Part shown: piece by piece, positions 4,112 to 54,064 of the stretch
Position numbering within the stretch: position 1 is the first letter of the stretch
Layout: each line of letters opens with the position of its first letter
Virus record (IMG/VR): IMGVR_UViG_3300020382_000273
Coordinates: 1 to 57,524 of that record
Reading direction: 5' to 3' (one strand)
From: a virus
Taxonomy: Duplodnaviria > Caudoviricetes
DNA: 57,524 nucleotides
Program-made: the position numbers and the translations under genes
Notes under the pieces: generated by a model
Database searches by the model: none
What the model saw: the letters and a program-made list of their open reading frames with translations, nothing else
What the model was told of the DNA's origin: nothing

Positions 4112-4165
4112 TCAAGGAGTATTGTGCTTCTCCTTCTAAGCACTTTAATTTTAATAAATTTAATA

Positions 4166-10551: not shown

Positions 10552-10939
10552 ACCTAAACAAAAAGTTTGTAAATCCTGTAATTCTCTTAAAAAAATAAGT
10601 GAGTATCACAAAGATGGAATTAAATACATTAGAACTGATTGTAAAGTATGTTTCCAAAAGAAAAAAGTTGATAGAAGAAACAAATTAAAAAAATGGTTAA
10701 CAGACTATAAAGAATTATTGTCTTGTTCTGTGTGTAACTATTCAAAAGAAACACACAAAACTTTTTCAATTCGAGCTATAGAATTTCATCATCACAACAA
10801 AGACAAATTATTTAATGTTAGTGAAGGTCCAACTCAAGGATTCTCTAAAGAATCTATATTAAAAGAAATACAAAAGTGTTTAGTATTATGTGCCAGATGT
10901 CACGCTGAGTTACATCATAGATTAAAACAATCCACCTGA
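10541..10939 (+). CDS. HNH-type endonuclease with Zn fingers
   Basis: CKSC, CKVC, CSVC, EFHH, KCLVLCARCHAELH. Confidence 0.85.
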   Translation: MSSKPKQKVCKSCNSLKKISEYHKDGIKYIRTDCKVCFQKKKVDRRNKLKKWLTDYKELLSCSVCNYSKETHKTFSIRAIEFHHHNKDKLFNVSEGPTQGFSKESILKEIQKCLVLCARCHAELHHRLKQST

Positions 10940-13900
10940 CTTATTTTTTTTAAATATAGGACCAGAATCTTTTATTTTTCTCTTTTTCTTTTTCTTTTTC
11001 TTTGTAGGCACATCTATTACCATTGGTTTTGTTACACCCCTACGTTTGTAACTTTTTATGTTATTGTTTACAACTGTACCTGTTTCTGATGGTAACAAAC
11101 CTAATACATACATCATATAAATAACTGATTGCATTTTAACCGAATCTTTATACATAGGATCTATTTCTTTCTTACCACCATAATTGTCTGTGTATTTACC
11201 AGTTACACCTAAAACAAACAGATCGATAATTTGTTCTCCAGCTTTTAGTCCAATCCCTAAAACACCTAATCTATCTAAAACCCCTTGTCTATTTCCCTCA
11301 AAAAATTGATACGGTTTTTCTTCGTCACTAAAAGTTTCAATCATAGCATTAATTCCTTTTAGAACAACTGGATTTGCTGCTGGTATTGGAGATACAATAT
11401 CAGTAATTATATTTCCTGCTCTACCTTTTTTTCTATTTTCAAAATCTTTTGTTTGTTTTTCTTCATCATCATCACCAAGAGCTGTTAGATTTGCCAACGT
11501 TTGAGTTATCAATAATCCTAATGCATTAAAGGCTACTGATTCACCAATTAACCCAGCTAAAGATCTTGTTGCCGCTATCTTATCTTGAGTTGTTGGTCCA
11601 GTTTTTTGTGACAACACACTTATATCTGCAAGCATTCTACTCTTTTGATTAATTAAAAAGTTAGCAAATGGGAAAAAAACTTTTCTTAATATTTGTGGAC
11701 CAACCTTTTTACTGGAAAAAAGTTTACCTTGTAAGTCAGCATCAGAAGTATTCTGTTGTCTACCTAGTTGTTGCTGAGCATATTCAGCTGCCCTTGTATT
11801 CTCTTTATGAGTTTTCCAATCAATACCGCTAGTTTCAATACCTTGTTTTTTTAAATCATTAACATAATAAGCCATAAAAGAAGCTCTTGCTGCAAATAAA
11901 TCAGGCTTAACTAAGAACTTTTGAAGCCAAAATTTTTGTGCTACATCAACTCCACTCATAAATCTATTAAATTTATTACGTGATGAGTTATCTAATTTTG
12001 TATTACTTCCTTCTAAGTTTGTTGTCGCTTGTAAACCACGATTCGAAACATCTACACCTAAATTTTCTATCCATTTCATAGCATCTTTATTTGTAGTTGC
12101 TAATCGAATTCCTTGAATTGAAGAAGCGATACCCTTAGCAGTAAATAAATTTATAAGCGTATTAACTAGAGGTGTTAATTGTTTTAAATACTGAGTAGGA
12201 CCACCAAGTACTCTGGACACTCCCAGTCCAGCTAACCTATTTAATCCAGCTAAGTATTTCTTGGTTTCTTTATCTGATTTTACATCAGTACTTACACCTC
12301 TTTTAGCATTAACATATTCATTGAACCTTTTCTTTATTGCTTCTCTGTTATCAAGATCAGGAATAATATTTTTAAATTCTGGATTTTCTATAAATGCTTT
12401 TAACTGTGCAATACCTTCTGCAGTTTCTATATCTGTTAGTGCAGCTTTTAATTTTCTAATATTCTGACTATCAAAAGCAAAACTTACAACTCTATTTGTT
12501 AATTCCGTTGGTTTTTTTGCCTCTATTAAAACGCCAGTTTTTTTATCATAAATACTTTCAGAATGAGCTTGAAAAACTGGTTCACCAAGTTTAGGTATAT
12601 CGTCTTCTAATTTTATTCTATTAATGGAATCAGGTATATAATTTATATCTTTTCCTAATACTTTATTATAAACATTTAATGAAACATTTTCTAATGCTAC
12701 TCGTTTTTGTGCCCATTGATCTTGCATAAACTCAACAGCAGCTATGTTTACAGGATCTACACCCTTACTAAGATCATTAATATCTTTAGAATCTTTAACA
12801 AATTTATTAAAAACTTCTCTAGCTACTTTAGCTAACTCAGTTTGACCATCTGCCTCTAATGCTCTAATAGATTCTTCTACTAACTTTTTTCTTCTATTAA
12901 ATTCTGTCTGTTGTTCTGATTTTGTACCTATAACAGTTCTTCTCATAAAAGCAAACATACCTCGTTCTTGATCATTACTTATATCAGTAAATGGTTTACC
13001 GTTAGGATTAGTTCTTTCTTTATCCAGAAATCTTTCTTTACCAGCTTTAAAAACATTACCTACATTTGTTATAAAAGTCTCAGCATATAAATCGCTTATG
13101 TTATTAGTAATTTTTTCAGCTTTAGCAGCACCTCTTCTTATTTTCATAAAACCACTTAACTTTTCAAAAGACAAAGCTCCAGATTGTCCTTTGAACATAC
13201 TCTCAAGTTGAAGAGGTAATTGTGCTAACCAGGTATTCCAAGCTGAACCAACTCTTGTAGACATATATGTTTTTAATTGTCTTGCTATTAAACCTTTTTT
13301 CTTAGTTGTAATTATATTTTTATTTGCAGTATCTACTGCAACAATAAGTGCCATTCCACCAGTAGTTTGGTTAGTAGCAAAATTAATCATTGAATCTAAT
13401 GCTTGTAGTTTTTGTGATTGACTCATTAAATCTAAATCAATATTCATAAACTTACGTACAATTTCTTGTTTAGCAGCATCTACTTTAATTTTCTCACCAG
13501 TAAATGGATCAACTTGATCATTTATAAGACTATCAACAATAGACTTATATGTGTTAAAAGCTTTTTTAGTTGCCTTATTAATTAAATCAGCAGCTATACC
13601 TGGAGGAGTAGGAGGAGTATCTTTCTTATTCTCTGCTTCTTTTACTTTTTGATCGTGAATAATATTACGCATTTCAACTAATGTTAATTCATTAGAATTT
13701 AATCCTGTCAAATCACGGAAAGATTGAGCTTCAGCTTCTCTTAATATTTTCTCTTGTTTTTTTATTGCATCATTAGAAAATTTATCTAAAGATTTTATAT
13801 CAACACTTTCTGCTGTTATAAGCTTTCCATCTTTATTTCCTTTTGATTTTTTTAAACCATCAATAATAGTTTGTGCTTTGGCGTTGTATGCATCTATATC

Positions 13901-16900
13901 AGAAACTAAATCAATATCAATATCAAGAAACTGTTTTACTGCTACCTGCACATTAGCCTCAGCACCTTTTACTGATTTTTTTATACTACGTTGTTTAGCC
14001 TTTGCATCATTAATTTTCTTGATTGCATTTGCATCATTGTTAACTTTTTCTGCAAAATTTAAAACCTTTGCAACGTTGAGAGGGTTATTTAAATTAACAC
14101 CAGAAACTTTATTAATTAACTGAGTCATTTTACCAGTAGTAATTTTACCAGCTTTCTGTAAAGCCTTTAAAGCAGCTGCTAAAGACTTACGTCTTGTTGT
14201 TTGATCTTTCTTAGAATCATTAGCTGCTTTAACTTCAAGTCTAATTTGATCTTTTAATGCTGCAGATTCATCTACGTTATTAAGTTTCTTTTTATTTTTC
14301 TTAGCATCAATCTGTCGTTTAGTAGGAGAAGGTATTTCAACTCCAAGCTTTTTATTTATTTCCTGAATCATCGCTTCCTTTTCAGAATCATTTGATTCGT
14401 TAAAAAGTTTTGATTGTTCTAAATACTTAATAGCATTATCTGCTTCTGATTGCTTGTTGTCTCTGTTACCTCTTCGCTTATTACGATTTCTAGTTTTGAT
14501 AATAATATTATCAACTACTTTATCTACTCTAGTCTTGTTCACACTCATCACTTCGCCCTCAGTCGAAGTTGATGAGTCTGTATCTATCTCCTGTTCATTC
14601 TCGTTTGAGACATTACCCTGTTTGCCATTGTTGTTCTCGATGGAGGTTTTACGTGTGTCTCCTTTTCCCACTCCTGGCAATTCCACGTTGGCATCTTTCT
14701 CTGTTTCTTGGCTTGTGCCATCATCTGATAACACTTTTTTCTTTGTTGTTGATTCTTGAATGGCATCGGTTTCTTTTTTTACTAATTCATTTAACTTATT
14801 GGATATTTCATTTTCAGTTGGTACTCTACCATCTCCTTCTTCTTTTAAGGCTTCAATTGCATCCTCTCTTGTAATATTATCTAACGCAGCTTTTAAAGCA
14901 ATATCTGGATTTTCTTTAACAAATGTTGCCATTGCTTGTTCAGTATCCGCATCTTTTAAATTTTTAATCTGAATATCTATATCAACAATTTGTTTTTCTA
15001 TATCTGCTTTTAAAGGTCCTTCTAAACCTTCTTTTTTCCGTACTAATTTTCCTCTTTGAGTTAATAACGCACCAGCTGGTTCAATGTTTTCAGGCATTAT
15101 TATAGTACCCTGTGTTTGATTTACTGCAGTCTGCATAGCGTAAACCTCTTTATAAACAGCTGCTCCTTCAGCTTCAGTAATATTACCAGCTTTTACAGAT
15201 TCATTAATAGCAGCTTCTATATTAGAGCTTTCTGTAGCTGTTCTAAGTAAAGCTTTTCTAGAGTTACCTAGCATTAGTTTTTTACTACCTACACCAGTAG
15301 TAGCACCTAATGTTAAAACAACAGTTTCTACAACATCTCTATAACTAGTAGTTTCGTTTAATATTTCTTTACCTACTGAGTCATTTGCTAAAGAATTTAA
15401 AAAATTTCCAGAAATTAATACTGGCAATTCTTCTACTACAACTTCTTTAAAATTTTCGTTTGCTAAGTCTTTTACTTTTTGTTTAAAAACTTTACTACTA
15501 ACAACTGATTTTGGTTTCATTACTAAATCAGATAATATTTTTCTATAGTTTTTTGTGTTTGCCAACAACTTAACATTAGATCCTGCCAATCCAGAAAAAA
15601 TACCATCTAAACTAGCTCTACCATTTCCATATAAAATTGCTCTATCATAAGCTTCTTGTTCTGGAACTCCTCCAGCCATTAATTGTTCTTTAATTGAATT
15701 TACTTCAGTAGTTAATGAAGATGCATATGATGAAACTCCCATACCTACACCACCTTTTACTGTTCTTTTGCTACCAGCTTTTACCAAACCTTTTTGCATA
15801 GTTTTAGTTGCCCATTTACCACTATATATTAATCCAAGTAAATGAGTAACTGTACCAGCTGTTCCTTCTGTAAATGCAGCTCCAGTAGTTTTTAATCCAA
15901 ATTCAGGAACTTTTTTTGATTTTTCTAATATATCTTTAACCTCTTCGGTAGTAAACATACCAGACATATCCATCATTGTATTACTATCTAATATCTGTCC
16001 TCTTTTAGTTACAGATACTTGGTGTGGTTGACCATCAAAAGTAGTCATTACTTCTTTTGTGTTTTCAACTGTAGAACGTTTTAAAGGATCACCTAAATTA
16101 CCCACTAAACGCCCATCACTATTTAACATTACATCTATTGACTCATTAATTGCTCTTGTACCATTAGCCATAAAAGAATCTTCAAGTCCTACCATATTTA
16201 AACCAGTTTCAAGTACTGTCGGTATAAACCCAACGAACGCCCCTACGAAACTAATAGCCACATCGGATAGAGTATTAGCTCCTTGTGCTAAGCCTCCAGT
16301 AAAATCTCCATCTCTTTGGTTTATTACATATTGTTTTCTTCTAAGAGTTCGAAGATCTTGTTCTTTTTCAAGTTCAGGAAATAATTTAATAAAAGCATAC
16401 TGTCTTCCAGCATTTTTTAATTGATTAGCTTGTAATTGATTTCTTTTAGATATTAAATTTGCTCTAGTAGCAGGATCACTAATAAACTTTAATTTATTTT
16501 CAATTATATTTAAATCAGCAGTAATATCATCACTAACAGACGTACTATAAGATGCAAGTTTTCTTAGATTTCTTCTTTCTTCTGAATATTTTTTAGCCTC
16601 ATCACTTAAATAAAAATCTTTTATTTCTTGAACATACGCAGCATCTTCTTTTGTATTTTCGTCTTCCCAAGCTCTATAATCAGCTACATCAACTTCTACC
16701 TTATTTAAAATATCTACAGGTATAGTAGATTTTTCTTCCAGCTCTAAAACTTCCTCATCAGAATAAAATAACTTTTGAAGAAAATTTCTATCTGAAGGAT
16801 CATTAGCTGATACTGCAATCATTCCACCTGGAATTTTTCTTTTACCTCTAAATTTACCATCTACTACTGTACTACCCACATTTTTCATAACTAATGGGTT

Positions 16901-17587
16901 CATTGTTTCAGCATAACCAGTAAGTAATTTTAAATCTTCGACTCTTTGATAAAAATATCCATCAGGATTAGGAGTATCTCCAATACCATCATCAACATCT
17001 TTTTGTCTTCTTTTAATTTCTGCTACTTGATCTTCAGGAGATAATTCTGAAAAAGGAATATTATTTACTAAAATACTATTTACTTGAGTATTACTATTAT
17101 CGTCATAAACATCGGATAAATTATTTTTATTTACTACTACAGAAGAGTCCGAGAATAATTCTGTTTCCTTTGCAGGAGGTGTAATGCCATCCGTATCTAC
17201 CGTTCCTGAAGTAGAATTTTGTAGTTGATCTTTTTTTTTTAATTGATTATTAGCAACAAGTTTATTAAATTGATCTTGTCCATATTTATCAATTAAAGTA
17301 TTACCATCTGCTTCAGTACCATTTGGAGTAATATAAATATTATCATCAGTTAAACCGTTATCAAATATTTGAGTATCAGGTATAACTTCTTCTTCAACAA
17401 CTTCTTCAGTAACAACAGGAGCTTGCTCTTCTACAACTTCCTCAACAACTTCTTCTTTGACGACTTCCTCAGTAACTAAAGTAAACTTACCAGAAGCAAC
17501 AAGTTTATTAAATTGATCTTGTCCATATTTATTAATTAAATCAGACTCACTTACTATTCTACCATTAGGAGTTCTATATTTATTCAT
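10922..17587 (-). CDS. Giant internal virion / DNA-ejection protein (2221 aa)
   Basis: Last and largest gene of the morphogenesis block, mainly helical; position analogous to podoviral ejection proteins (inference). Confidence 0.7.
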   Translation of the reverse strand: MNKYRTPNGRIVSESDLINKYGQDQFNKLVASGKFTLVTEEVVKEEVVEEVVEEQAPVVTEEVVEEEVIPDTQIFDNGLTDDNIYITPNGTEADGNTLIDKYGQDQFNKLVANNQLKKKDQLQNSTSGTVDTDGITPPAKETELFSDSSVVVNKNNLSDVYDDNSNTQVNSILVNNIPFSELSPEDQVAEIKRRQKDVDDGIGDTPNPDGYFYQRVEDLKLLTGYAETMNPLVMKNVGSTVVDGKFRGKRKIPGGMIAVSANDPSDRNFLQKLFYSDEEVLELEEKSTIPVDILNKVEVDVADYRAWEDENTKEDAAYVQEIKDFYLSDEAKKYSEERRNLRKLASYSTSVSDDITADLNIIENKLKFISDPATRANLISKRNQLQANQLKNAGRQYAFIKLFPELEKEQDLRTLRRKQYVINQRDGDFTGGLAQGANTLSDVAISFVGAFVGFIPTVLETGLNMVGLEDSFMANGTRAINESIDVMLNSDGRLVGNLGDPLKRSTVENTKEVMTTFDGQPHQVSVTKRGQILDSNTMMDMSGMFTTEEVKDILEKSKKVPEFGLKTTGAAFTEGTAGTVTHLLGLIYSGKWATKTMQKGLVKAGSKRTVKGGVGMGVSSYASSLTTEVNSIKEQLMAGGVPEQEAYDRAILYGNGRASLDGIFSGLAGSNVKLLANTKNYRKILSDLVMKPKSVVSSKVFKQKVKDLANENFKEVVVEELPVLISGNFLNSLANDSVGKEILNETTSYRDVVETVVLTLGATTGVGSKKLMLGNSRKALLRTATESSNIEAAINESVKAGNITEAEGAAVYKEVYAMQTAVNQTQGTIIMPENIEPAGALLTQRGKLVRKKEGLEGPLKADIEKQIVDIDIQIKNLKDADTEQAMATFVKENPDIALKAALDNITREDAIEALKEEGDGRVPTENEISNKLNELVKKETDAIQESTTKKKVLSDDGTSQETEKDANVELPGVGKGDTRKTSIENNNGKQGNVSNENEQEIDTDSSTSTEGEVMSVNKTRVDKVVDNIIIKTRNRNKRRGNRDNKQSEADNAIKYLEQSKLFNESNDSEKEAMIQEINKKLGVEIPSPTKRQIDAKKNKKKLNNVDESAALKDQIRLEVKAANDSKKDQTTRRKSLAAALKALQKAGKITTGKMTQLINKVSGVNLNNPLNVAKVLNFAEKVNNDANAIKKINDAKAKQRSIKKSVKGAEANVQVAVKQFLDIDIDLVSDIDAYNAKAQTIIDGLKKSKGNKDGKLITAESVDIKSLDKFSNDAIKKQEKILREAEAQSFRDLTGLNSNELTLVEMRNIIHDQKVKEAENKKDTPPTPPGIAADLINKATKKAFNTYKSIVDSLINDQVDPFTGEKIKVDAAKQEIVRKFMNIDLDLMSQSQKLQALDSMINFATNQTTGGMALIVAVDTANKNIITTKKKGLIARQLKTYMSTRVGSAWNTWLAQLPLQLESMFKGQSGALSFEKLSGFMKIRRGAAKAEKITNNISDLYAETFITNVGNVFKAGKERFLDKERTNPNGKPFTDISNDQERGMFAFMRRTVIGTKSEQQTEFNRRKKLVEESIRALEADGQTELAKVAREVFNKFVKDSKDINDLSKGVDPVNIAAVEFMQDQWAQKRVALENVSLNVYNKVLGKDINYIPDSINRIKLEDDIPKLGEPVFQAHSESIYDKKTGVLIEAKKPTELTNRVVSFAFDSQNIRKLKAALTDIETAEGIAQLKAFIENPEFKNIIPDLDNREAIKKRFNEYVNAKRGVSTDVKSDKETKKYLAGLNRLAGLGVSRVLGGPTQYLKQLTPLVNTLINLFTAKGIASSIQGIRLATTNKDAMKWIENLGVDVSNRGLQATTNLEGSNTKLDNSSRNKFNRFMSGVDVAQKFWLQKFLVKPDLFAARASFMAYYVNDLKKQGIETSGIDWKTHKENTRAAEYAQQQLGRQQNTSDADLQGKLFSSKKVGPQILRKVFFPFANFLINQKSRMLADISVLSQKTGPTTQDKIAATRSLAGLIGESVAFNALGLLITQTLANLTALGDDDEEKQTKDFENRKKGRAGNIITDIVSPIPAANPVVLKGINAMIETFSDEEKPYQFFEGNRQGVLDRLGVLGIGLKAGEQIIDLFVLGVTGKYTDNYGGKKEIDPMYKDSVKMQSVIYMMYVLGLLPSETGTVVNNNIKSYKRRGVTKPMVIDVPTKKKKKKKRKIKDSGPIFKKNKSGGLF
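14584..14766 (-). CDS. Nested alternate-frame small basic protein (MPFK-type)
   Basis: MPFKNQQQRKKCYQMMAQAKKQRKMPTWNCQEWEKET; overlaps a low-complexity linker of the giant gene that shows atypical codon usage. Confidence 0.55.
   Translation of the reverse strand: MPFKNQQQRKKCYQMMAQAKKQRKMPTWNCQEWEKETHVKPPSRTTMANRVMSQTRMNRR
17252..17532. repeat. 38-bp perfect direct repeat (17252-17289 and 17495-17532)
   Basis: AGCAACAAGTTTATTAAATTGATCTTGTCCATATTTAT twice; encodes the duplicated KYGQDQFNKLVA. Confidence 0.9.
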
Positions 17588-33445: not shown

Positions 33446-34582
33446 TTAATTATTTTTTCTACTACTTCTAATCCTCAAGCCTTTTCCTGATGTGTCATTA
33501 ATTGCTTTAGCTTTAAATCCTGCTTGTGGCGTTCCTTGAGGTGTTTGTCTCAAGTCCATATTAATGTTTTTACTTTTTTTCGAAACATCACCTATGGCAT
33601 CTGCCTTACCTTGATCATAAAAATATTGAGCAAGTTTGTCTGGATTCATTGCTGCATTTAATGCCTTGTGCCAACCTTTTGCATTTGATATTATACCTTC
33701 GCTATCAACATACTCATTAATAAAATTTTGTACATTAATTTGTTTAGATTTAATTTCATTTGCATCTCCAGATGAATAAATAATATTTTTTTCTCCTATA
33801 TTAAACTCAAAACCTTTGAATTCAGAATTAAAAACTTCATCTGTTTTTTTGCTAAAAAATTCAGCTCTTTTTTTATTAGCCTCCATCTCATCACGAGCCT
33901 CTTGGACCTTTTCCTTGTATTCACTATAATCTTTACGATCATCTTCGTTCAGCGAACCCCCACTTGACTCAAGAGGAATTTTATATGCTTCAGAAATTTC
34001 ACTTAAATATTTACGTGCTGTTGCAAGTTCTCTTTTTTTAGATATCTTCTTCTTTTTAATATCTCTTTCATCATCTATATCTTCATCATAACCATATTTA
34101 TCTTCCATTAGATATTCAATATCTTCTGTATCTAAATCTGTTTCTGTTAAAGAATAATATTCTTTTAATAATTTATCGTCACTTAATTCTGTATAATCTT
34201 TATTAGCATTTACAAAATCTTGAAACCCACGCCCTGTTTCTTTTTTAAATTTTAAATATTTAGAAACATCATCTGGTAATTCTTCATTACTTTCTGATTG
34301 AGCAAATAAATCATCTACAGAAGATATATCTTTATTATATCGTGATTTAATATATGAAAGAACATCTTCGTCTTTTAATTCAGGTAAGTCTTGAATTTCT
34401 TCTGACTTTTCCTCAATTGGTAATTCTTTAGTTTCTGGAACAACAATTTCTATTGTATCAGAATTTTCGTTAACTTCTTGAGCTTGTAAACCATCTTCGT
34501 GTTTAGTTAATAAGTCTTGCTCAATTTCTTGTGTTGATTTTGACTCAATAGAGTCAACTGATTTTACATCTGTGAATTTCAT
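33446..34582 (-). CDS. Capsid scaffolding protein
   Basis: Very acidic and helical; lies between portal and capsid genes. Confidence 0.75.
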   Translation of the reverse strand: MKFTDVKSVDSIESKSTQEIEQDLLTKHEDGLQAQEVNENSDTIEIVVPETKELPIEEKSEEIQDLPELKDEDVLSYIKSRYNKDISSVDDLFAQSESNEELPDDVSKYLKFKKETGRGFQDFVNANKDYTELSDDKLLKEYYSLTETDLDTEDIEYLMEDKYGYDEDIDDERDIKKKKISKKRELATARKYLSEISEAYKIPLESSGGSLNEDDRKDYSEYKEKVQEARDEMEANKKRAEFFSKKTDEVFNSEFKGFEFNIGEKNIIYSSGDANEIKSKQINVQNFINEYVDSEGIISNAKGWHKALNAAMNPDKLAQYFYDQGKADAIGDVSKKSKNINMDLRQTPQGTPQAGFKAKAINDTSGKGLRIRSSRKNN

Positions 34583-34633: not shown

Positions 34634-37069
34634 TCATCTAGGTTCAAATTCAGCAAGATCAAAACCATCTAAACTATCTTCTTTAGATTCAAAAGATACA
34701 GGAGCTAAATTATTTTTACGTTGTTCTATTAATTTTGATTGCTCAGTAGACTGCTGACTTATTCTGTCTGATTTAGCAGTTTCTCTTTGATCTTCTCTAG
34801 CTGACATTGCTTCAACCTCAACTCCTTTTAATTTCATATTTAAATCAAATTCCAATTTCATTAATTCAGATTTTATGTTTGCCTCACCTTGCATTCTTTG
34901 AAGTGAAAATTGCATTTCACTTTGCATTATTTTCAACTTAGCTTCATTTTCAGTTTGAATTTTTGCCATTGCAGCCTGTGCAGCCATCTGTTGAGATTGT
35001 TGTTGGATTTTTCCTTGTTGCTCTGCTGCTGCTGCAGATGCTTTTTGAGTTGCATCTGCTTTTCTTTTACGTTTTAATTTTAAAACTTGATTAGCAACTT
35101 TTAAATTTTTAATTTCTCTAATATCAATAGCATCTTCTAAGTTAATAGAATCACGTGATAAAGCCATATTAATATTTTGTTCTAGCATTTTTCGTTCTTC
35201 TTCGTCAGGAACAACTTCTATAAAAATACCAAAATCACTTAAATATAAATCTGTAATTTCATTAAGTACAGAAACATTGTATTTACCAATTTGATTTACA
35301 AATTCATCTTTAAATTCTGAATACTCTAAAACATCAGCAATTCGTGAAGATAATGCTGTAGCTAAGTTTTGAGTTATACTTAAACCAGCTTGTAATATAT
35401 GACGAGTAGCAGTATTACTACTTAATGCAGCCATTTTTTGTAATCCAACTAATGCATTTTCATTAGGTAAAGATCCGTCTCTTGCTTCGTTTAATCCAGT
35501 TACATCTCTTAACATACTTAAATAATGATTGTATGTACCAATTAAACTTTGAATTTTAGACTGACCTGAACTTGCTGTTAATTGTTGAATAGGAACTTTT
35601 GCTTGATTAAAATCTCCATCCTGAGTATAACTTCTACCAATAACACTACCTGTTTGAAAATACATTCTTAATGCATCTTCAGGATTATATGCAGCACCAT
35701 TACCTAAATCAACTTCTGCTAATCCATCTGCATCAATAAATACACCATCAGGAACAACTTTAGATAAAACTTGTTGTAATTTTAAATGTGTAATTTGAAT
35801 TAAATCTGCAAACGTAATCATTCGTCTTACTAAAGATTCTAAAACTCCTTTATACATTCTAGGAGCACAAGCTATAAATTCTGGATAAACATTCTGACTT
35901 GCCGATTGTGGTCTAGCCATATTCTCAGCCATTTGCCATTTAAGAATTATGCTAGTTCCCATAACCATAACTCCTTCATACCAAACATCAATAGTTTTAG
36001 ATACTTTTTCAAAGTTTCCTTCTTCCATCATTTCATCTGATGGATTAAATTCATCTGTTTTTTCTATAACTTTTTCAGCACCAACATTATTTTTTTTCTT
36101 TTTATATGTAAATGTATTAGTTGTTTTATAATTAAAAAACAAAATTGTAGCACTATCCCTGCTAAACAAACTGTTATTATAAAATTGTGCAGTATTATTA
36201 TAGTCATACCAACTTTGGCTATACTGAGATATTTCCTCCATATCTTCTTTAGTTAATGAAGGATCAATTTTTAATAATTCTATAATAGGTAAAGTTTTAA
36301 TTTCACCCCAATAAAAACAATCATTAAAATGAGGATCTTCAGTATAACTATAAACTAAGTTAGCTGGATCTACATAATTTATTTTAATTCCATCACCAGG
36401 CAAAAATGAATGTCTAGCTACAGAAATACCTAAAACAGTTTGATCGTAATCTAATTGTTTTTTTATTTCGTGATATTTATTTTCTTCAAAAACAGTATTA
36501 ATTGCTTCTTCTTCAGCAATTTCAATTGAAGGTTTATATTTCATTTGCATATGTAATGCAAGTTCTTCACTATCTGCAGGTAAGTCTTCAACATCAGATG
36601 CAAATGCATCTACGTCAAAATCTTTATTTACTTGAGTTATTAAATCTTTTGATGCCATATCTGCACCAAGCATACGTTGATAGTTGTTTCTTCTATCCAT
36701 TGACATTGCATCTTGTGCATATGCTTTTACTTGAAATACCCTGTCAGACATTCCATTAACAACTATGTCAACAAATTTTGGTATAATAGGAACTGGTGTC
36801 CAATCTAAATTCAAATAACTTAAATCGCCATCTATTGCTAATTCATTTTTATATTTAGCAACTGATTGTTCTCCTCTAGCATAAAGTCGTAATCTATGAA
36901 ATTCTCCCCATTGATTATAAAATCTATTTGTATTACCATCTTTTCTAAACCATTCGTATTGTATGGCTTGACCAATCTGTAATCCAAATTCATTTGATTT
37001 CTTAACAGAATCAGAAACAAATTGACTTGGAAACCCAGTTGGGTTAATGTCTATTTTTACATCTTGCAT
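34634..37069 (-). CDS. Portal protein
   Basis: 811 aa directly after the terminase; RLYARGEQ, PIIPKFVDIVVNG, VTGLNEARDG, Q-rich coiled-coil C-terminus. Confidence 0.85.
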   Translation of the reverse strand: MQDVKIDINPTGFPSQFVSDSVKKSNEFGLQIGQAIQYEWFRKDGNTNRFYNQWGEFHRLRLYARGEQSVAKYKNELAIDGDLSYLNLDWTPVPIIPKFVDIVVNGMSDRVFQVKAYAQDAMSMDRRNNYQRMLGADMASKDLITQVNKDFDVDAFASDVEDLPADSEELALHMQMKYKPSIEIAEEEAINTVFEENKYHEIKKQLDYDQTVLGISVARHSFLPGDGIKINYVDPANLVYSYTEDPHFNDCFYWGEIKTLPIIELLKIDPSLTKEDMEEISQYSQSWYDYNNTAQFYNNSLFSRDSATILFFNYKTTNTFTYKKKKNNVGAEKVIEKTDEFNPSDEMMEEGNFEKVSKTIDVWYEGVMVMGTSIILKWQMAENMARPQSASQNVYPEFIACAPRMYKGVLESLVRRMITFADLIQITHLKLQQVLSKVVPDGVFIDADGLAEVDLGNGAAYNPEDALRMYFQTGSVIGRSYTQDGDFNQAKVPIQQLTASSGQSKIQSLIGTYNHYLSMLRDVTGLNEARDGSLPNENALVGLQKMAALSSNTATRHILQAGLSITQNLATALSSRIADVLEYSEFKDEFVNQIGKYNVSVLNEITDLYLSDFGIFIEVVPDEEERKMLEQNINMALSRDSINLEDAIDIREIKNLKVANQVLKLKRKRKADATQKASAAAAEQQGKIQQQSQQMAAQAAMAKIQTENEAKLKIMQSEMQFSLQRMQGEANIKSELMKLEFDLNMKLKGVEVEAMSAREDQRETAKSDRISQQSTEQSKLIEQRKNNLAPVSFESKEDSLDGFDLAEFEPR

Positions 37070-39316
37070 TTACCTTATAATTTTGCTGTAACTTCCCTTA
37101 TTGTCATATCTTGCAAAGTTAAACTTTATTTTTGATTCTTTTTTAACTGTTTCATAAAGATGTTTTTGAATTGCCATTAACGCTAACCCTGAACTAATTG
37201 TTGCATCAAACTTAGTTCTATTGTTAATATCAAATCTTGCCCAATCTTCTAAAGTCCTACTAAAATACATACTGCCTATTGAATCTGGATCTCTATAATC
37301 TCCAGAAAAATCTAATCCTACATATTTTTCTATATATGATTCTATAGATGCTGCGTGTGTTTGTTTAACATCTTCACTTGAATTAGGAATACCACCTAAT
37401 TCTTTTTCAGTTTTTGATAATTTATTATAAGACTTGTCAGGTCTATTAATACTATACCCTCTATATCCTCTATTTTTAAAATGATACAATAATCTTGGTT
37501 TATTATTTTCTACTAATATAGGCATTCCATAAAAAACACAAGCCATTAATACTTCTTCAAAAAATATTTCTGCAGTTTGTGGTCTAGCAACATATTCTAA
37601 AAAAAATTCATTACTTGGGGCATCATCCATATTGAACCTTGTAACACCGTGTAACGCACCGTTTGATCCTCCACCCCCTACAGTACCAGATATGTCATAA
37701 CTATCGCAACCAAATGCTCCTATATGTTCATTACCAGGTTTCTTTTTTCCGTTTTGTACATAGCTTTTGTTTTGTAAGTCTTTTTTAGGTGTCCAAGAAA
37801 TAACAAACCTACCTCTAATATCAGGACTCCATAAAACTTCACTATCTTTTACACCATTCTTCCAACTAAAATTACCTTTAGTTAAAAATCTATCTTTTAT
37901 TAAAGAATCATTGTAATCAATTTGCTGATATATTTTTGTAAGATTAAAAAGAGATTGTTTGCTTTCATCTCTAAATGCGTGAGATTCAGTTCTAGGAAAC
38001 TGTCTGTAAAATTCATTTAACGCATCTGGATCATTTTTTAAAGAGTCTACTTCGTTTTGCCAATATTGAATTGCAGATGTAGTTATTTTTTCTCCATCAA
38101 TTCCAAATAATTCTTTTTTTACATCTTGAATAATAGGCATACCATAAACATCAATAAAACCTTCCATATTATATTCCATAGGAATAAAAAGATTATATAA
38201 ACCACTTTTAGTTTGACCGTTAGCGTTTCTTTGTTGTATAGAAGAATCATAAAATAACTTTTTAAAATTACTACCTCCTTTATCTAATGAATTAGATGTA
38301 GATCCCATCATACATTTTCCAATAACTTTACTACCTAATCGTAAACAAGTTTTTGTTACCCTCCAGTTATTTAAAATATTACTAGGTTTTTCCCATTTCC
38401 CACTTTCATCGTGAACTAATAATTTTAACTTTTCTCCATCATAAGAATTATCACCTGTATTTTTCCAGTCAATTGTAGTATCTAATCCTTCAACTTGTAC
38501 ATCATCTTCTTCATACATATTTCTTTTTGTAATCTTTGAAGCTGGAACTCTAAAAGCTAATTCAGTTTTAGGTTTATCCATACCATCTTGCACAGGTTTA
38601 AAAAAGAAAGGATAATTATTAGAAATAGGAACTACTTTATCTGTAAACATTTTTTTAGCATCTGCTCCAGTTTTAGATAAAATACCTATTCTTGAATCTT
38701 TAGAAATTGTTGCTATGTTAGCACATTCTTCACTTCCCATATAAGAAAATCCAGAACGTCTAATTTTTAAATAACAAATTCCAAAACTTCTTTTATCTGC
38801 TTTACAAGCTTCCCAGTATATATAAAAAATTCTATTAGCTTCTCTAAAATCTGGAAGACCAATATCAATTTTTGTCCATTGTAAATACATATAATGAGAT
38901 CCAGTAATATAAGTAGGAACTCCATTATTCATAAACCAAAAACCTTCTTCACGTCTGTCAAACTCTTGCTCAATGTAATCTACCCATTGATCTTTAAAGT
39001 TTATAGACGTTTGATGCCATTGAAATATAGTAGGTATTTTTTTTAATGCTGCAGGAATAGTAAAAGATTCCCAGTATTGTTCTTTTTTTTCTAAAGATTT
39101 TTTATGTATATTTTTGCTTTGTATAGGTAGAGCTATTTCTAATCCATTGATTGATATAACATCTCCAATTTGTCCTGATTTAGATATAACAATTACTTTA
39201 TATTTTTCATTAAAACCATACTCCCAACTTTTAGCTTTGTTCTTATTGACAAAATCGCTAGTCGGAATATAATTATTTAATTTCCTATATAAATTATTTT
39301 GATCTTCTTTCAGCAA
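37070..39316 (-). CDS. terL: Terminase large subunit
   Basis: LKIRRSGFS (Walker A variant), LLVHDESGKW (Walker B), MGST, GCDSYD nuclease motif, ENNK. Confidence 0.9.
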   Translation of the reverse strand: MLKEDQNNLYRKLNNYIPTSDFVNKNKAKSWEYGFNEKYKVIVISKSGQIGDVISINGLEIALPIQSKNIHKKSLEKKEQYWESFTIPAALKKIPTIFQWHQTSINFKDQWVDYIEQEFDRREEGFWFMNNGVPTYITGSHYMYLQWTKIDIGLPDFREANRIFYIYWEACKADKRSFGICYLKIRRSGFSYMGSEECANIATISKDSRIGILSKTGADAKKMFTDKVVPISNNYPFFFKPVQDGMDKPKTELAFRVPASKITKRNMYEEDDVQVEGLDTTIDWKNTGDNSYDGEKLKLLVHDESGKWEKPSNILNNWRVTKTCLRLGSKVIGKCMMGSTSNSLDKGGSNFKKLFYDSSIQQRNANGQTKSGLYNLFIPMEYNMEGFIDVYGMPIIQDVKKELFGIDGEKITTSAIQYWQNEVDSLKNDPDALNEFYRQFPRTESHAFRDESKQSLFNLTKIYQQIDYNDSLIKDRFLTKGNFSWKNGVKDSEVLWSPDIRGRFVISWTPKKDLQNKSYVQNGKKKPGNEHIGAFGCDSYDISGTVGGGGSNGALHGVTRFNMDDAPSNEFFLEYVARPQTAEIFFEEVLMACVFYGMPILVENNKPRLLYHFKNRGYRGYSINRPDKSYNKLSKTEKELGGIPNSSEDVKQTHAASIESYIEKYVGLDFSGDYRDPDSIGSMYFSRTLEDWARFDINNRTKFDATISSGLALMAIQKHLYETVKKESKIKFNFARYDNKGSYSKIIR

Positions 39317-51078: not shown

Positions 51079-51237
51079 TTATTTACTATTTTTATAAGGA
51101 AACATTCTATTTAATGTATCCTGGCGTTTATTGCATCCACAACCACCTTTGGTTACTTTGTCAACTATTGCTTTTACTCCTGTTTTTTTAAATACTTTTG
51201 CTAAGTCATCACCTAGACCAACTGATTGAGTTTTCAT
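51079..51237 (-). CDS. Small basic Cys-containing protein
   Basis: GLGDD.AK..K.TG.K..V..CGC.KRQ..LN..FPY; ATG at 51237. Confidence 0.7.
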   Translation of the reverse strand: MKTQSVGLGDDLAKVFKKTGVKAIVDKVTKGGCGCNKRQDTLNRMFPYKNSK

Positions 51238-51241
51238 TTGA

Positions 51242-51382
51242 TTATTTTTTACAACTACATATTTGATTAGGACAATTTTCAACTTTAAAAATAAATTTTG
51301 CTACAAAAGAATTCCAATTACATTGAAATCTACACCAAAGTGCTTGTACCATATATCCTAATTTTACTAAAAATTTCCCCAT
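51242..51382 (-). CDS. Small Cys-rich protein (46 aa)
   Basis: Manual translation MGKFLVKLGYMVQALWCRFQCNWNSFVAKFIFKVENCPNQICSCKK. Confidence 0.65.
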   Translation of the reverse strand: MGKFLVKLGYMVQALWCRFQCNWNSFVAKFIFKVENCPNQICSCKK

Positions 51383-51383
51383 A

Positions 51384-51512
51384 TTATGAGTTATAAATGT
51401 TTTTTATTTTTTTATAAGGAATGTGTTGAGTAGTTTGTGGTTTACTAACTGTTCTCGTATCTTTAATTTCCTTTTCTTTGACTACATTTTTAATTACTTT
51501 CTTTTTAGCCAT
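51384..51512 (-). CDS. Small Lys-rich protein (42 aa)
   Basis: MAKKKVIKNVVKEKEIKDTRTVSKPQTTQHIPYKKIKNIYNS. Confidence 0.55.
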   Translation of the reverse strand: MAKKKVIKNVVKEKEIKDTRTVSKPQTTQHIPYKKIKNIYNS

Positions 51513-51537
51513 TGTAATTTGATTTGATTAATATTAC

Positions 51538-51666
51538 TTATTTTTTTTTCTTTTTTCTACCTGCTGCTGCCATAGCAGCAAATTTTGTTTTGCCGTATTT
51601 TTTTCTGCCTATATAAGCAGCTAATCCACCGCCTAACTTTGCAGCTAGTGTGCTAAACTTACTCAT
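51538..51666 (-). CDS. Small basic protein (42 aa)
   Basis: MSKFSTLAAKLGGGLAAYIGRKKYGKTKFAAMAAAGRKKKKK; TAATG coupling. Confidence 0.75.
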   Translation of the reverse strand: MSKFSTLAAKLGGGLAAYIGRKKYGKTKFAAMAAAGRKKKKK

Positions 51667-51887
51667 TATTTACTAATAACTGAAGAAAGGTGAGCTCCAA
51701 CATTTTTAACGTGATCAGGATGCTTGTGTCTGTAAGACATATCTGAATCTGCTCCATAAGCGTGACCATACATTTTTTTTGACATACCTTTTGACTCATC
51801 TCTACGTGATTTCATAGATTGAGATTTCTTTCCGTTTCTACTACCTAATGACTCATTAAGTCTTGAATTGTAACCTTGTTTTTTCAT
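51666..51887 (-). CDS. Small basic protein (73 aa)
   Basis: MKKQGYNSRLNESLG..SRRDESKGM. Confidence 0.75.
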   Translation of the reverse strand: MKKQGYNSRLNESLGSRNGKKSQSMKSRRDESKGMSKKMYGHAYGADSDMSYRHKHPDHVKNVGAHLSSVISK

Positions 51888-51907
51888 AATTATTATTTTT
51901 ATTTTTA

Positions 51908-52066
51908 TTAATACATTTTTTTACCCATAGCTTTTTCATCTCCGTAACCTGGATTGTTTTTTACTTTTCCTCCATTCATTTTAGCAAAGGAGTGAGCTTG
52001 AGCTTTCCCTACTGCATTATAAGGAAATTGTCTTTTTTTGCCGCCTGGCATCATTACTGTTGGCAT
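51908..52066 (-). CDS. Small basic protein (52 aa)
   Basis: MPTVMMPGGKKRQFPYNAVGKAQAHSFAKMNGGKVKNNPGYGDEKAMGKKMY. Confidence 0.7.
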   Translation of the reverse strand: MPTVMMPGGKKRQFPYNAVGKAQAHSFAKMNGGKVKNNPGYGDEKAMGKKMY

Positions 52067-52090
52067 AATTTTTATTTTTAATTAATAATA

Positions 52091-52098
52091 CAAATATA
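52091..52098 (-). promoter_or_regulatory. -7 promoter box TAtaTTTG
   Basis: Exact consensus inside the microprotein array. Confidence 0.6.
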
Positions 52099-52389
52099 CT
52101 AATATTTTCCTTGTCTATTTTTAGGGGAACTTTTAGTTGATCCTCCTTTACCAGACCACAGTTTTTTACAAGACCAATATCTAGCAGTTAATTTTGACTT
52201 AGCTGTTCCACATTTATGACGTGCCTTAAATGAACGTCTTGCAGCTGCTGAATAATTATGTCCATATCCTTTTGCTCCAAAGTGAATAAGTTTTTCTTGA
52301 CCACCTTGACAGGCTTTAACCATTTTCTTTTTACCTGCTCTATCAGATCGCATAACTTTATTACACGACATTGTTGATTTATTTGCCAT
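52099..52389 (-). CDS. Small basic protein (IHFG..ARH.C..YWS family)
   Basis: KLIHFGAKGY..RRSFKARHKC..TARYWSCKKLW; ATG at 52389. Confidence 0.75.
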   Translation of the reverse strand: MANKSTMSCNKVMRSDRAGKKKMVKACQGGQEKLIHFGAKGYGHNYSAAARRSFKARHKCGTAKSKLTARYWSCKKLWSGKGGSTKSSPKNRQGKY

Positions 52390-52393
52390 AAGA

Positions 52394-52507
52394 TCACTTT
52401 TTTGTTTTCTTTTTACGAACACAATTAGGAACTTTTTTTCCTCCTTTAGTTTTTAATCCATATGCTATAAACCCTTTCCAACAAGGATTTTTCATTTTTT
52501 TTGCCAT
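52394..52507 (-). CDS. Small basic protein with PCWKG..K..GK.VPNCV motif (37 aa)
   Basis: MAKKMKNPCWKGFIAYGLKTKGGKKVPNCVRKKKTKK. Confidence 0.75.
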   Translation of the reverse strand: MAKKMKNPCWKGFIAYGLKTKGGKKVPNCVRKKKTKK

Positions 52508-52624
52508 TTATTTCTTTTTATGAGAATAACCTTTTTTCTTTAAAGATAAATGGTCTTTCATTGTTTTAGCAACTTTCTTAATTCCAGTTTTGCTATACAT
52601 ATTATGTATTTTAAATTTTGCCAT
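52508..52624 (-). CDS. Small basic protein (38 aa)
   Basis: MAKFKIHNMYSKTGIKKVAKTMKDHLSLKKKGYSHKKK. Confidence 0.75.
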   Translation of the reverse strand: MAKFKIHNMYSKTGIKKVAKTMKDHLSLKKKGYSHKKK

Positions 52625-52633
52625 AGTTTAATT

Positions 52634-52738
52634 TTAAGTTGTTCTTCTTACTCGTATATATTGTCCTAAAGAAATAACTGGTTTTTTAACCAATGCTTGT
52701 TTTCTTTTTTCTAATCGTGTTTCAGTCTTAGTAATCAT
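52634..52738 (-). CDS. Small basic protein (34 aa)
   Basis: MITKTETRLEKRKQALVKKPVISLGQYIRVRRTT; TAATG coupling. Confidence 0.55.
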   Translation of the reverse strand: MITKTETRLEKRKQALVKKPVISLGQYIRVRRTT

Positions 52739-52986
52739 TATCCTGAAAATCTTGTTCTACCTCTTCCTTCTTGTCTTTTTGTTATTCTATTAATCTTTGT
52801 AGTTATTCTGTTTTGCTTTTTTAGACTTTTTATTTGACCTTTAGAACTAAATTCGTTTTTTGTCATATATTCTCTTTCTAAATCATCACTTTTAGCTTCT
52901 AACTCTTTTAAACGTCTTAAAGCACGATTCGAAAAGTTTTTTTCTTCGTCTGTTTTTTTACTACTTGGTTTTAAATTTAGATTCAT
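52738..52986 (-). CDS. Small basic protein (82 aa)
   Basis: K/R-rich ORF in the array. Confidence 0.6.
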   Translation of the reverse strand: MNLNLKPSSKKTDEEKNFSNRALRRLKELEAKSDDLEREYMTKNEFSSKGQIKSLKKQNRITTKINRITKRQEGRGRTRFSG

Positions 52987-53003
52987 TGTTATCGTTTTTA
53001 AAA

Positions 53004-53318
53004 TTAATTTCCTCCTGTATTACCTTTATTTTTTCTTCCTTTGCCTTTTTTACCTCTCGCTCTTCTATCACCAGCAGTATTTGTTTTACTACCCCTGTTC
53101 TTTTTAGCAGTTTCCAAAACATAACGACCTTTCCCTTTATGAGAAACATCCAAACCATCATAGTTACCATACGTTCCTTTTTCTCTATTAGCTCTATTAT
53201 CTGCAACTCTTTGCTTTATAGATTTTCTTTTTTTATTATACTCTCCTTGATACTTACGATGCTTTGCTCGTGCATCAGGATTATCTCTATAAAATTTTGC
53301 AGTTCTGCTTAACGCCAT
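53004..53318 (-). CDS. Basic protein with degenerate HNH-like motif
   Basis: MALSRTAK..DGLDVSH..G..VLE....NRG; ATG at 53318. Confidence 0.65.
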   Translation of the reverse strand: MALSRTAKFYRDNPDARAKHRKYQGEYNKKRKSIKQRVADNRANREKGTYGNYDGLDVSHKGKGRYVLETAKKNRGSKTNTAGDRRARGKKGKGRKNKGNTGGN

Positions 53319-53326
53319 CTTTATTG

Positions 53327-53343
53327 TATATTTGACAAAGATA
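53327..53343. promoter_or_regulatory. Face-to-face divergent -7 boxes
   Basis: TAtaTTTG (+, 53327-53334) and TAtcTTTG (-, 53336-53343). Confidence 0.65.
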
Positions 53344-53358
53344 ATTAATTTAAATCTA

Positions 53359-53841
53359 ATGCAGTTAAACAAAAAATTAAGAATAAATTACGATAGAACA
53401 GAACCTTCTAACGACTATTTAAAATATTGGAAGGTAATAAAACAATGGGCAAAAGCTAATTATAATATATCATCATCAGATATAGAAATGATGATGTTTC
53501 TTTATAGCGAAGGATTATTTACTCGTTTACAATTTGATGAATTTAACGAAATTATGAGTTGGGATAAAATGAGATTTCATAAACTACTTAATCAAAAGTG
53601 GATTATTATCTGGAGAGAGAAAATTGGTAATGAATCTAAATTGTATGAGTTAGGATTTAAAGGAAAAAGATTGGTTTCTTCTATATATAGAAAACTAAAT
53701 ATGCAAGAAACCATCTCTGAAAGTCCTTATCGTAATAATATATTTCGAAAAGATACTAAGTATAGTAATAAGATATATCGTAAAATTATTAAAGAAATGA
53801 ATTTAACTATTCGACAACAACAACGTCACGCTCCTGAATAA
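53359..53841 (+). CDS. Putative winged-helix regulator
   Basis: Only plus-strand gene in the late block; S.SDIEMM.FLY...L...KWI......LYEL.FKGK resembles a MarR-like wing. Confidence 0.55.
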   Translation: MQLNKKLRINYDRTEPSNDYLKYWKVIKQWAKANYNISSSDIEMMMFLYSEGLFTRLQFDEFNEIMSWDKMRFHKLLNQKWIIIWREKIGNESKLYELGFKGKRLVSSIYRKLNMQETISESPYRNNIFRKDTKYSNKIYRKIIKEMNLTIRQQQRHAPE

Positions 53842-54064
53842 TAGTATATATTCTTTCATCTAACATCATAGTGTGTCCAGCTGCTTTGTCATAATAAATA
53901 ATATCATATTTTTCTAATACAGAACATTCAGTACCTGGCATAATTACTCTGCCTTTTTTATATCTAAATTTATCTTTATCAGCAACAGTTAATATTAATC
54001 CTGAATCGTGTGTTACTTTTTCTTTAATAGTTTCTATTACTATTGTTTTTCCTATTGCTTTCAT
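53807..54064 (-). CDS. groES: Phage co-chaperonin GroES
   Basis: MKAIG..IVI..SGLIL..GRVI..G..D.IYY...I.ERDV. Confidence 0.85.
   Translation of the reverse strand: MKAIGKTIVIETIKEKVTHDSGLILTVADKDKFRYKKGRVIMPGTECSVLEKYDIIYYDKAAGHTMMLDERIYTIIQERDVVVVE

Follow-up and report, generated by a model that had tools for sequence, protein, structure and literature searches.

A putative gene nested in a giant virion-protein gene

The window, by which we mean the whole stretch of 57,524 nt analysed here (viral record IMGVR_UViG_3300020382_000273), carries on its minus strand a giant gene for a protein of 2221 amino acids. We find that the open reading frame (ORF) 14584..14766 (minus strand), which lies wholly inside this giant virion-protein gene and in its +1 frame, is very probably a real protein-coding gene. 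Comparison with related sequences shows that both frames stay open across a large, deeply diverged phage family, and that related phages carry one copy of the small gene, either nested in the giant gene or separate and right after it.

The nested gene has 60 codons and a TAG stop codon, with its ATG at 14766..14764. According to the ORF listing, its product is a protein of 60 amino acids, MPFKNQQQRKKCYQMMAQAKKQRKMPTWNCQEWEKETHVKPPSRTTMANRVMSQTRMNRR, with a net charge of +12. The host codons GAT GCC ATT CAA GAA, which encode D941-A-I-Q-E of the giant protein, hold ATG CCA TTC AAG one base downstream; the first-pass annotation of this DNA had proposed that a 60-residue frame opens here, and both the codons and the ORF listing agree with it. 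An in-frame TAA at 14779..14781 (minus strand), 5 codons before the ATG, closes the nested frame on its upstream side. The conserved core of the product comprises residues 1–42 (14641..14766, minus strand) and contains the MPFK start, Q8, C12, Y13, W28, C30, W33 and the sequence EKET. Read in the host frame, the same DNA (14585..14767, minus strand) encodes residues 941–1001 of the giant protein, which form an acidic linker of low complexity (DAIQESTTKKKVLSDDGTSQETEKDANVELPGVGKGD...).

The base composition of the host gene changes over this linker, as had been noticed in the first-pass annotation. The GC content of the nested region is 37–47% compared with 31% for the whole giant gene, and C occupies the third position in 14 of 61 codons compared with 99 of 2222. 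Alanine is encoded by GCC in 5 of the 164 alanine codons of the giant gene. With 64 codons from stop to stop, the stretch is also the longest same-strand run in an alternative frame of the giant gene, the next longest being 39, 32 and 31 codons.

The nested frame in related phages

An alignment of 26 giant proteins was used to retrieve 80 related viral loci, giving 81 loci with the window, and a hidden Markov model (HMM) of the +1 peptides was run over all six frames of each. Nested copies were found in 63 of the 81 loci, all offset by +1 and all starting with ATG. A variant in locus L062, which has lost the Pro codon and begins MFKS, brings the nested total to 64. Six loci (L039, L043, L049, L052, L055 and L058) have a free-standing copy located 3–10 nt past the stop codon of the giant gene. 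Homologous copies are thus present in 70 of the 81 loci, and in no locus do a nested and a free-standing copy occur together.

The homologous site in the relatives is coded GATGCC[A/G]TTCAA[A/G]A[A/G], and the +1 frame is open for 37–68 codons from the homologous ATG. The peptides encoded in this frame are alike (MPFKS.xQ...Y....P..A..W.KE.P...LP.K), and the likeness persists where the giant proteins are only 31–35% identical to that of the window. The expectation that the shifted frame would be open and conserved in relatives is therefore borne out, down to 31% identity of the host proteins. The first-pass annotation had also suggested that DAIQ recurs in linkers of giant phage virion proteins. 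The motif DA[IV]Q is indeed present in 76 of 122 proteins (the 120 listed giant homologues together with P0001 and P0002).

The giant ORF of locus L027 (P0021) contains DA[IV]Q twice, at residues 930 and 1101. The first motif opens a +1 ORF of 14 codons (MPFNLNQILKLMFL), and the second, 171 residues further on, opens an intact nested gene. It looks like a domain was inserted just after the nested start and the start motif was duplicated.

Selection on the two overlapping frames

Over the nested ORF, nested codon position 3 corresponds to host position 1 and nested position 2 to host position 3. The minimum numbers of changes at nested positions 1/2/3 are 25/18/32, 19/16/39, 25/17/52, 18/13/34 and 29/26/36 in five subgroups, so that host third positions vary least. 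The codon-aligned C-terminal module of the same giant genes served as a control. There, host position 3 is the most variable, and the ratio of changes at host position 3 to those at host position 1 is 1.39–1.66, compared with 0.33–0.72 over the nested ORF. A second control, 30 ungapped codons upstream of the ATG, gave flat counts owing to insertions and deletions. Host synonymous sites are thus the most constrained positions within 14584..14766, which is the reduction in synonymous variation that the first-pass annotation had asked about.

In all five subgroups, amino acid identity is higher in the nested frame than in the host frame. The ratio of nonsynonymous to synonymous changes (dN/dS) calculated with NG86 is 0.10–0.23 in the nested frame (0.13 in the window's own subgroup) and 1.1–2.1 in the host frame; since NG86 was not designed for overlapping frames, these values are indicative only. 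Taken together, the substitution patterns show purifying selection on the nested frame, and the host frame appears to be an unconstrained acidic spacer in this region that is only kept stop-free. Among 55 unique sequences, the median net charge is −9 for the host segment and +13 for the nested protein.

The same pattern can be followed in single codons. The host alanine codon is GCC in 63 of 63 loci. The host 5-mer takes 14 different forms, and the nested 5-mer is MPFKS in 48 of the 63 loci. Exchanges of I for V (ATT to GTT) and between E and K (GAG/AAG) in the host protein are silent in the nested frame. These observations support the proposal that DAIQ is a footprint of the MPFK start. We infer that the two host motifs are only shadows, DAIQ reflecting MPFK and VGKGD reflecting WEKET, because ATG CCA TTC AA yields the former motif and TGG GAA AAG GAG AC (W-E-K-E-T) the latter when read in the host frame.

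Other frames are rarely open. Of the 55 unique nested sequences, 2 have an open third sense frame, and the three antisense frames are open in 4, 18 and 5. The two antisense ORFs that overlap the nested ORF in the window (14454..14759 and 14569..14874, plus strand) are therefore by-products, and only two frames are kept. The host frame is stop-free in every nested copy, and of 38 free-standing copies, 37 contain stops in the corresponding frame. The giant ORF is therefore read through, with both frames in use. At the population level, four metagenome runs are identical over the nested ORF, and the sole difference among them is a G to T exchange at 15210.

Besides the limited meaning of dN/dS in overlapping frames, several observations weigh against the interpretation of 14584..14766 as a gene. 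We permuted the synonymous codons of the giant gene in 3000 shuffles that left the giant protein unchanged. A +1 run of at least 64 codons was obtained in 612 of the 3000 shuffles, and the nested region itself was open over 60 codons in 345; the host amino acid sequence (E, K, T, Q, G and D) rarely makes +1 stops. The ORF in this genome alone is not beyond chance, and the case therefore depends on the comparison with related sequences. Contigs from RNA libraries, found in two runs of one study, cover the nested ORF (X18, 14455-14793), but these could be DNA carry-over and say nothing about translation. Also, 11 of the 81 loci gave no HMM match. In two of these (L004 and L010) the contig stops at the end of the giant gene, and in five (L021, L040, L046, L060 and L069) the giant gene is cut at its 5′ end. 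The other four (L041, L045, L076 and L078) have a whole giant gene and no copy. For L041 and L045, whose records are at least 90% complete, searches of the whole record found no copy either; the gene can therefore be absent and is evidently dispensable or replaceable in some relatives.

The outcome of the shuffles and the conservation of DA[IV]Q in the host frame of many homologues would both suit a chance ORF, that is, an acidic linker that happens to lack +1 stops and owes its conservation to a host motif DAIQ...VGKGD. Nevertheless, we consider this explanation extremely improbable. It is contradicted by the dN/dS values of the two frames, by the low variability of host third positions, by the use of GCC in every locus even though this codon is rare in the giant gene, and by the existence of free-standing homologues. 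Non-homologous DAIQ sites coded GATGCT provide an internal control, and these open +1 ORFs of 6–21 codons only.

A family of small basic proteins

The first-pass annotation had pointed to stand-alone small phage proteins that begin with MPFKS, and these do exist. A phmmer search of the 60-residue product against 1.84 billion proteins gave 29 matches at E ≤ 1e-3, the best at 1.8e-7. Nearly all matched proteins are 44–110 amino acids long, align from residue 1 (mostly query 1–47 with target 1–47) and keep the same two Cys and two Trp residues. A family profile recovered 3698 clusters at E ≤ 1e-3 among 4788 candidates. Among the best 120 of these clusters, 115 start with MPFKS, the median length is 58 amino acids, the median net charge is +11, and the sole descriptive name given by the source is 'hypothetical protein'. 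In an alignment of 57 members, M1, P2 and Q8 are invariant and F3 and W33 are at least 90% conserved; the window copy has all five. The free-standing forms have 40–70 amino acids, with MPFK[SN], Q8, an aromatic residue at position 13, W33, E-T, LP and a basic tail. In the window, the family HMM has a single match, the nested copy (E = 1.1e-12). By these matches, the predicted nested product falls into a large unnamed family whose members are small, basic, free-standing proteins of phages, and the window copy belongs to its two-cysteine subtype.

Some of the nearest free-standing relatives are fused to domains typical of giant eukaryotic viruses (PBCV_basic_adap, DUF5771 and DUF5754). A fold search against BFVD returned just two uncharacterised giant-virus proteins, from Terrestrivirus and Harvfovirus, with E values of 6e-3 to 8e-3. 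The nested product has no meaningful match among Pfam, PHROGs or NCBIfam families, and phrog_1375 (unknown function) weakly matches the free-standing forms (E = 6e-5). AlphaFold2 (AF2), supplied with the family alignment, predicts helices at residues 6–21 and 30–36 and a disordered basic tail, with confidence (pLDDT) of 80–88 over residues 1–30. A profile search of the PDB yielded designed repeat proteins only, with no passing stretch, and we treated these as spurious. A tblastn search with one free-standing peptide at E ≤ 1e-3 gave no match, and tblastn of another at E ≤ 1 gave 81 records.

We also tried DUF3008 (PF11450), which likewise comprises small basic proteins of bacteria and phages. 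Its HMM matched neither the window protein at E ≤ 1 nor nine other members at E ≤ 5. A cluster labelled DUF3008 is the nearest named one in a language-model atlas (0.85 and 0.82), and 37% of its members carry the family. DUF3008 presumably resembles the nested family in an N-terminal 'MP.KS.AQ' and in 'LPE', but we do not assign the nested protein to it.

A second host gene and exchange of the cassette

A second, independent sample was seeded from free-standing members of the family and comprised the best 80 of at least 524 confirmed viral stretches. The MPFKS gene could be located by pattern in 74 of the 80. It is nested in 36 of these, always in the +1 frame of its host and in no other frame, and in the remaining 38 it is not spanned by any same-strand ORF of at least 250 amino acids. 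Thirty of the 36 nested copies lie inside ORFs of 1261–2805 amino acids. The other six lie inside a gene of 287–437 amino acids between the portal gene and a capsid-like gene, where they occupy the N-terminal acidic part of a scaffold-like protein (L125:3248-3373; also L127, L129, L133, L151 and L155). This short host gene, which has no relation to the giant protein, is an orthologue of window gene 33446..34582 (40% identity); the same small gene is therefore found in the +1 frame of two unrelated genes. Relatives of the L125 type share the same portal and capsid-like families.

Two weaker free-standing relatives occur in cultured phages. In Prochlorococcus phage P-RSP2 (HQ332139.1, L168), positions 4001-4117 give a weak tblastn match (E = 2e-3) among small early-region genes. 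The match falls between annotated genes, with no coding sequence on that strand, and may represent an unannotated small gene. The relative in Streptomyces phage FlowerPower adjoins a holin.

A FastTree phylogeny of the C-terminal 1000 amino acids of 77 giant proteins needs at least 3 switches between nested and free-standing arrangements and 22 changes of nested subtype. The sister phages L038 and L039 have a nested and a free-standing copy, respectively, and L076 (no copy), L079 (type D) and L077 (type E) have near-identical C-terminal modules. These switches of subtype and arrangement imply recombinational exchange of the cassette region. The giant proteins of L043, L004 and L010 simply lack the segment.

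The first-pass annotation had described the small gene as overprinted on the giant one. The nesting is confirmed, but the direction is probably the reverse, because the family of small proteins is far wider than the giant gene and the host-frame linker would then be the younger reading over an older small gene. The small gene would thus be the older partner, and the giant gene, or elsewhere the scaffold-like gene, would read through it as a tolerated disordered linker.

Start site and expression

For the 38 gene starts of the window, the mean fraction of A upstream is 0.55, with peaks at −14 to −10 and at −3, and a GGAG-like motif is present at 3 of the 38. A-rich leaders lacking a Shine-Dalgarno motif are expected for Bacteroidota phages. 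The leader of the nested ORF (14767..14786, minus strand) is of this kind: as the first-pass annotation had remarked, it is rich in A (12 of 20 bases), and it has no Shine-Dalgarno motif. Its A fraction of 0.60 places it in the top 6.7% of 104 internal out-of-frame ATGs. There are no alternative starts between the upstream TAA and the nested ATG, and inspection by eye revealed no internal promoter of the Bacteroidota type upstream of the ATG. The product would accordingly be made from the late structural mRNA by independent, Bacteroidota-style initiation at the nested ATG.

A seven-A run is located just upstream of the ATG in the window, and with the nested frame shut so close upstream, a shift within 4 codons would join the two frames. 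Both features would fit programmed +1 frameshifting or transcriptional slippage, which would produce a truncated isoform of the giant protein with a basic tail. However, the A7 run is not conserved upstream of the ATG in the relatives, so that they share no slippery site, the ATG is kept in 64 of 64 nested copies, and the gene is separate in six relatives. Free-standing homologues, moreover, begin exactly at MPFKS (115 of the best 120). We therefore regard frameshifting as very unlikely and independent initiation at the nested ATG as the better explanation.

Occurrence in cultured phages and environmental DNA

A nested copy of 42 amino acids is present in the +1 frame of gp18 of the cultured Flavobacterium phage vB_FspP_elemoF, and another occurs in MW202828.1. 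All 68 elemo records carry the nested copy, over which they are at least 99% identical, and the sole annotation covering it is the giant 'structural protein'. In the elemo record NC_055853.1 the copy spans 52379..52507. When a 500-nt query was used to compare elemoF with MW202828.1, the only nucleotide similarity was the nested ORF itself (78.8% over 131 nt).

Such an island of nucleotide identity between diverged giant genes, together with the mosaic distribution of the cassette on the tree, might be expected of a conserved nucleic-acid signal (an RNA structure, or a recombination or regulatory site) that encodes no protein. This is most improbable, since it is the third codon positions of the nested frame that vary most, thousands of called small proteins are homologous to the peptide and share its start, and free-standing copies keep the protein and not the host-like frame.

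DNA nearly identical to that of the window (97–100% of sampled words over 13800..15600) occurs in runs of 10 studies dating from 2014–2025. The runs are seawater, marine and sponge metagenomes.

Possible functions of the product

The usual place of the gene is the morphogenesis module, where it follows the portal gene, lies within the scaffold-like gene, or lies within or behind the giant gene; in this phage family the location is constant. On account of this constant location, the charge of +12 and the Arg/Lys tail, we tentatively suggest that the product is a protein that binds to nucleic acid or to the packaged genome and has a role connected with the virion or its assembly. It might, for instance, be a small protein that is packaged or ejected. 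We take such a protein to be comparable to gp6.7 and gp7.3 of phage T7. Two results speak against this suggestion. No family, fold or solved structure in Pfam, PHROGs, NCBIfam, PDB or BFVD gives a function, and the contexts of the free-standing copies are mixed. When 20 of the 38 free-standing neighbourhoods were scanned, 5 copies were located directly after a portal gene, and others follow tail-fibre-like, terminase, ligase-like, helicase-like or RNA-polymerase-like ORFs.

Alternatively, the gene may be real but hitch-hike among the late genes, with a product that regulates or takes over the host, for example by binding RNA or ribosomes or by countering defence, and we consider such a role about as likely as one in the virion. 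Free-standing relatives are found in the early region of P-RSP2, beside a ligase- or helicase-like ORF and beside a holin, and such a strongly positive charge would fit an RNA partner as much as DNA. On the other hand, the gene is always in the morphogenesis module in this phage family, and the five free-standing copies that directly follow the portal gene also point to the virion.

The giant gene and its surroundings

The window is a viral record of 57.5 kb, about 95% complete, with a GC content of 30.6%. The giant host gene (10922..17587, minus strand; 2221 amino acids) is the last gene of a structural module that, according to PHROGs, includes terminase (37070..39316), portal (34634..37069) and several 'virion structural proteins'. 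The giant protein has 125 homologues of 1.2–3.9 thousand residues, some of which carry ART-PolyVal (PF18760), LPD23 (PF18838), LPD38 (PF18857) or DUF3293 (PF11697), and the homologue gp18 of the elemo phage is annotated as 'structural protein'. The protein of the window itself matches no Pfam, PHROG or NCBIfam family. Searching the phage collection with the giant gene by blastn and tblastn gave no match, but we place no weight on these two negatives, since giant genes with the nested copy (MW202828.1 and elemo gp18) are present in that collection. It is probably virion-borne and of the polyvalent type. Its N-terminus (17200..17530, minus strand) contains KYGQDQFNKLVA twice, at residues about 20–32 and 100–112, with EEVV repeats between them.

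The portal protein matches those of cultured Flavobacteriia phages, namely the 68 Flavobacterium elemo records (44.5%), Maribacter phage Panino (49.8%), and Cellulophaga and Tenacibaculum phages. Giant genes that end the structural module, in the same position as that of the window, are found in MW202828.1 (741..12320) and PP540027.1 (28228..33717), where they are annotated as 'reticulocyte binding/rhoptry protein' and 'tRNA methyltransferase'. As names for whole giant proteins, both are probably spurious. Judging from its translation, the window also encodes a GroEL-like chaperonin of 527 amino acids (54223..55806, minus strand) and a GroES-like ORF of 85 amino acids (53807..54064, minus strand); GroEL and GroES annotations are also found in two cultured relatives, elemoF and Panino.

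About ten small basic ORFs stand in a row at 51079..53372 (minus strand). The first-pass annotation had placed the nested gene in the same class as these microproteins at 51–53 kb, but this did not hold up: the family HMM matched the nested copy only, those ORFs match other PHROGs, and the two groups share only small size and basic charge. ORF 52099..52422 (107 amino acids) is similar to an internal segment of phrog_220, which is labelled 'minor head protein and DNA pilot' (E = 6.9e-15), and ORF 52394..52507 (37 amino acids, two Cys) matches internal parts of several larger PHROGs. The small modules that are free at 51079..53372 seem to be domains of large virion proteins elsewhere.

Discussion

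The closest known parallel to this arrangement is the spanin gene pair of phage lambda, in which Rz1 is embedded inside Rz in the +1 frame; in other phages the spanin genes are overlapped or separated. The pair described here is similar in that a small gene lies wholly inside a larger gene on the same strand in the +1 frame, with both frames maintained, and in that relatives show embedded or separate layouts of the same gene. It differs from the spanins in its product, which begins MPFKNQQQRKK, has no hydrophobic signal, lipobox or membrane segment, and is thus not a spanin. The host is also different, being a structural-module protein of 2221 amino acids or, elsewhere, a scaffold-like protein. 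In addition, unlike in Rz/Rz1, neither host gene comes close to the nested family in breadth, and over the nested gene the host frame serves only as a spacer. Compared with the free-standing MPFKS proteins, the window copy has the start, conserved residues and basic tail in common and differs in being nested.

The host family itself resembles the polyvalent proteins of phages (Iyer et al. 2017, PMC5512222) in consisting of giant multi-module phage proteins, and the window's own giant protein is unlike the homologues with polyvalent domains in having no Pfam match. The terms 'overlapping', 'frameshift' and 'linker' are absent from PMC5512222, and its passages with 'reading frame' or 'nested' concern other matters. 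The nested arrangement is not described in the titles and abstracts listed by our literature searches, none of which concerns the MPFKS motif either; catalogues of small genes in supplements may list the family. A search for literature on DUF3008 found none. What is new is, first, the gene pair itself, with a widespread and probably older small gene under a younger spacer-like frame in two unrelated hosts. The breadth of the nested gene, which occurs in at least 100 viral contigs and 68 cultured-phage records, is new as well.

These results give a widespread group of marine Flavobacteriia phages one more conserved gene, which is unannotated and which standard annotation misses. They also account for DAIQ...VGKGD, which looks like a 'conserved motif' in giant virion proteins but is the shadow of a different gene, a caution for motif searches in low-complexity linkers. 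The cultured pair of Flavobacterium sp. BAL314 and the elemo phages makes the function of a family of about 3700 clusters directly testable, and the nested gene can be knocked out by changes that are synonymous in the host frame.

The usual story of overprinting appears to be reversed in this pair, with an old and widespread nested gene and a host frame that is a passive newcomer. It is conceivable, though still somewhat doubtful, that the small gene is a 'stowaway' cassette, an old free-living gene shaped such that the frame one base upstream reads as a stop-free, harmless acidic spacer. If so, the cassette could be swallowed by virion-gene linkers and swapped between them without loss, and part of the growth of giant phage proteins would come from read-through into small genes next to them. 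Genes in the +1 frame would then form a general hidden layer that annotation pipelines systematically miss.

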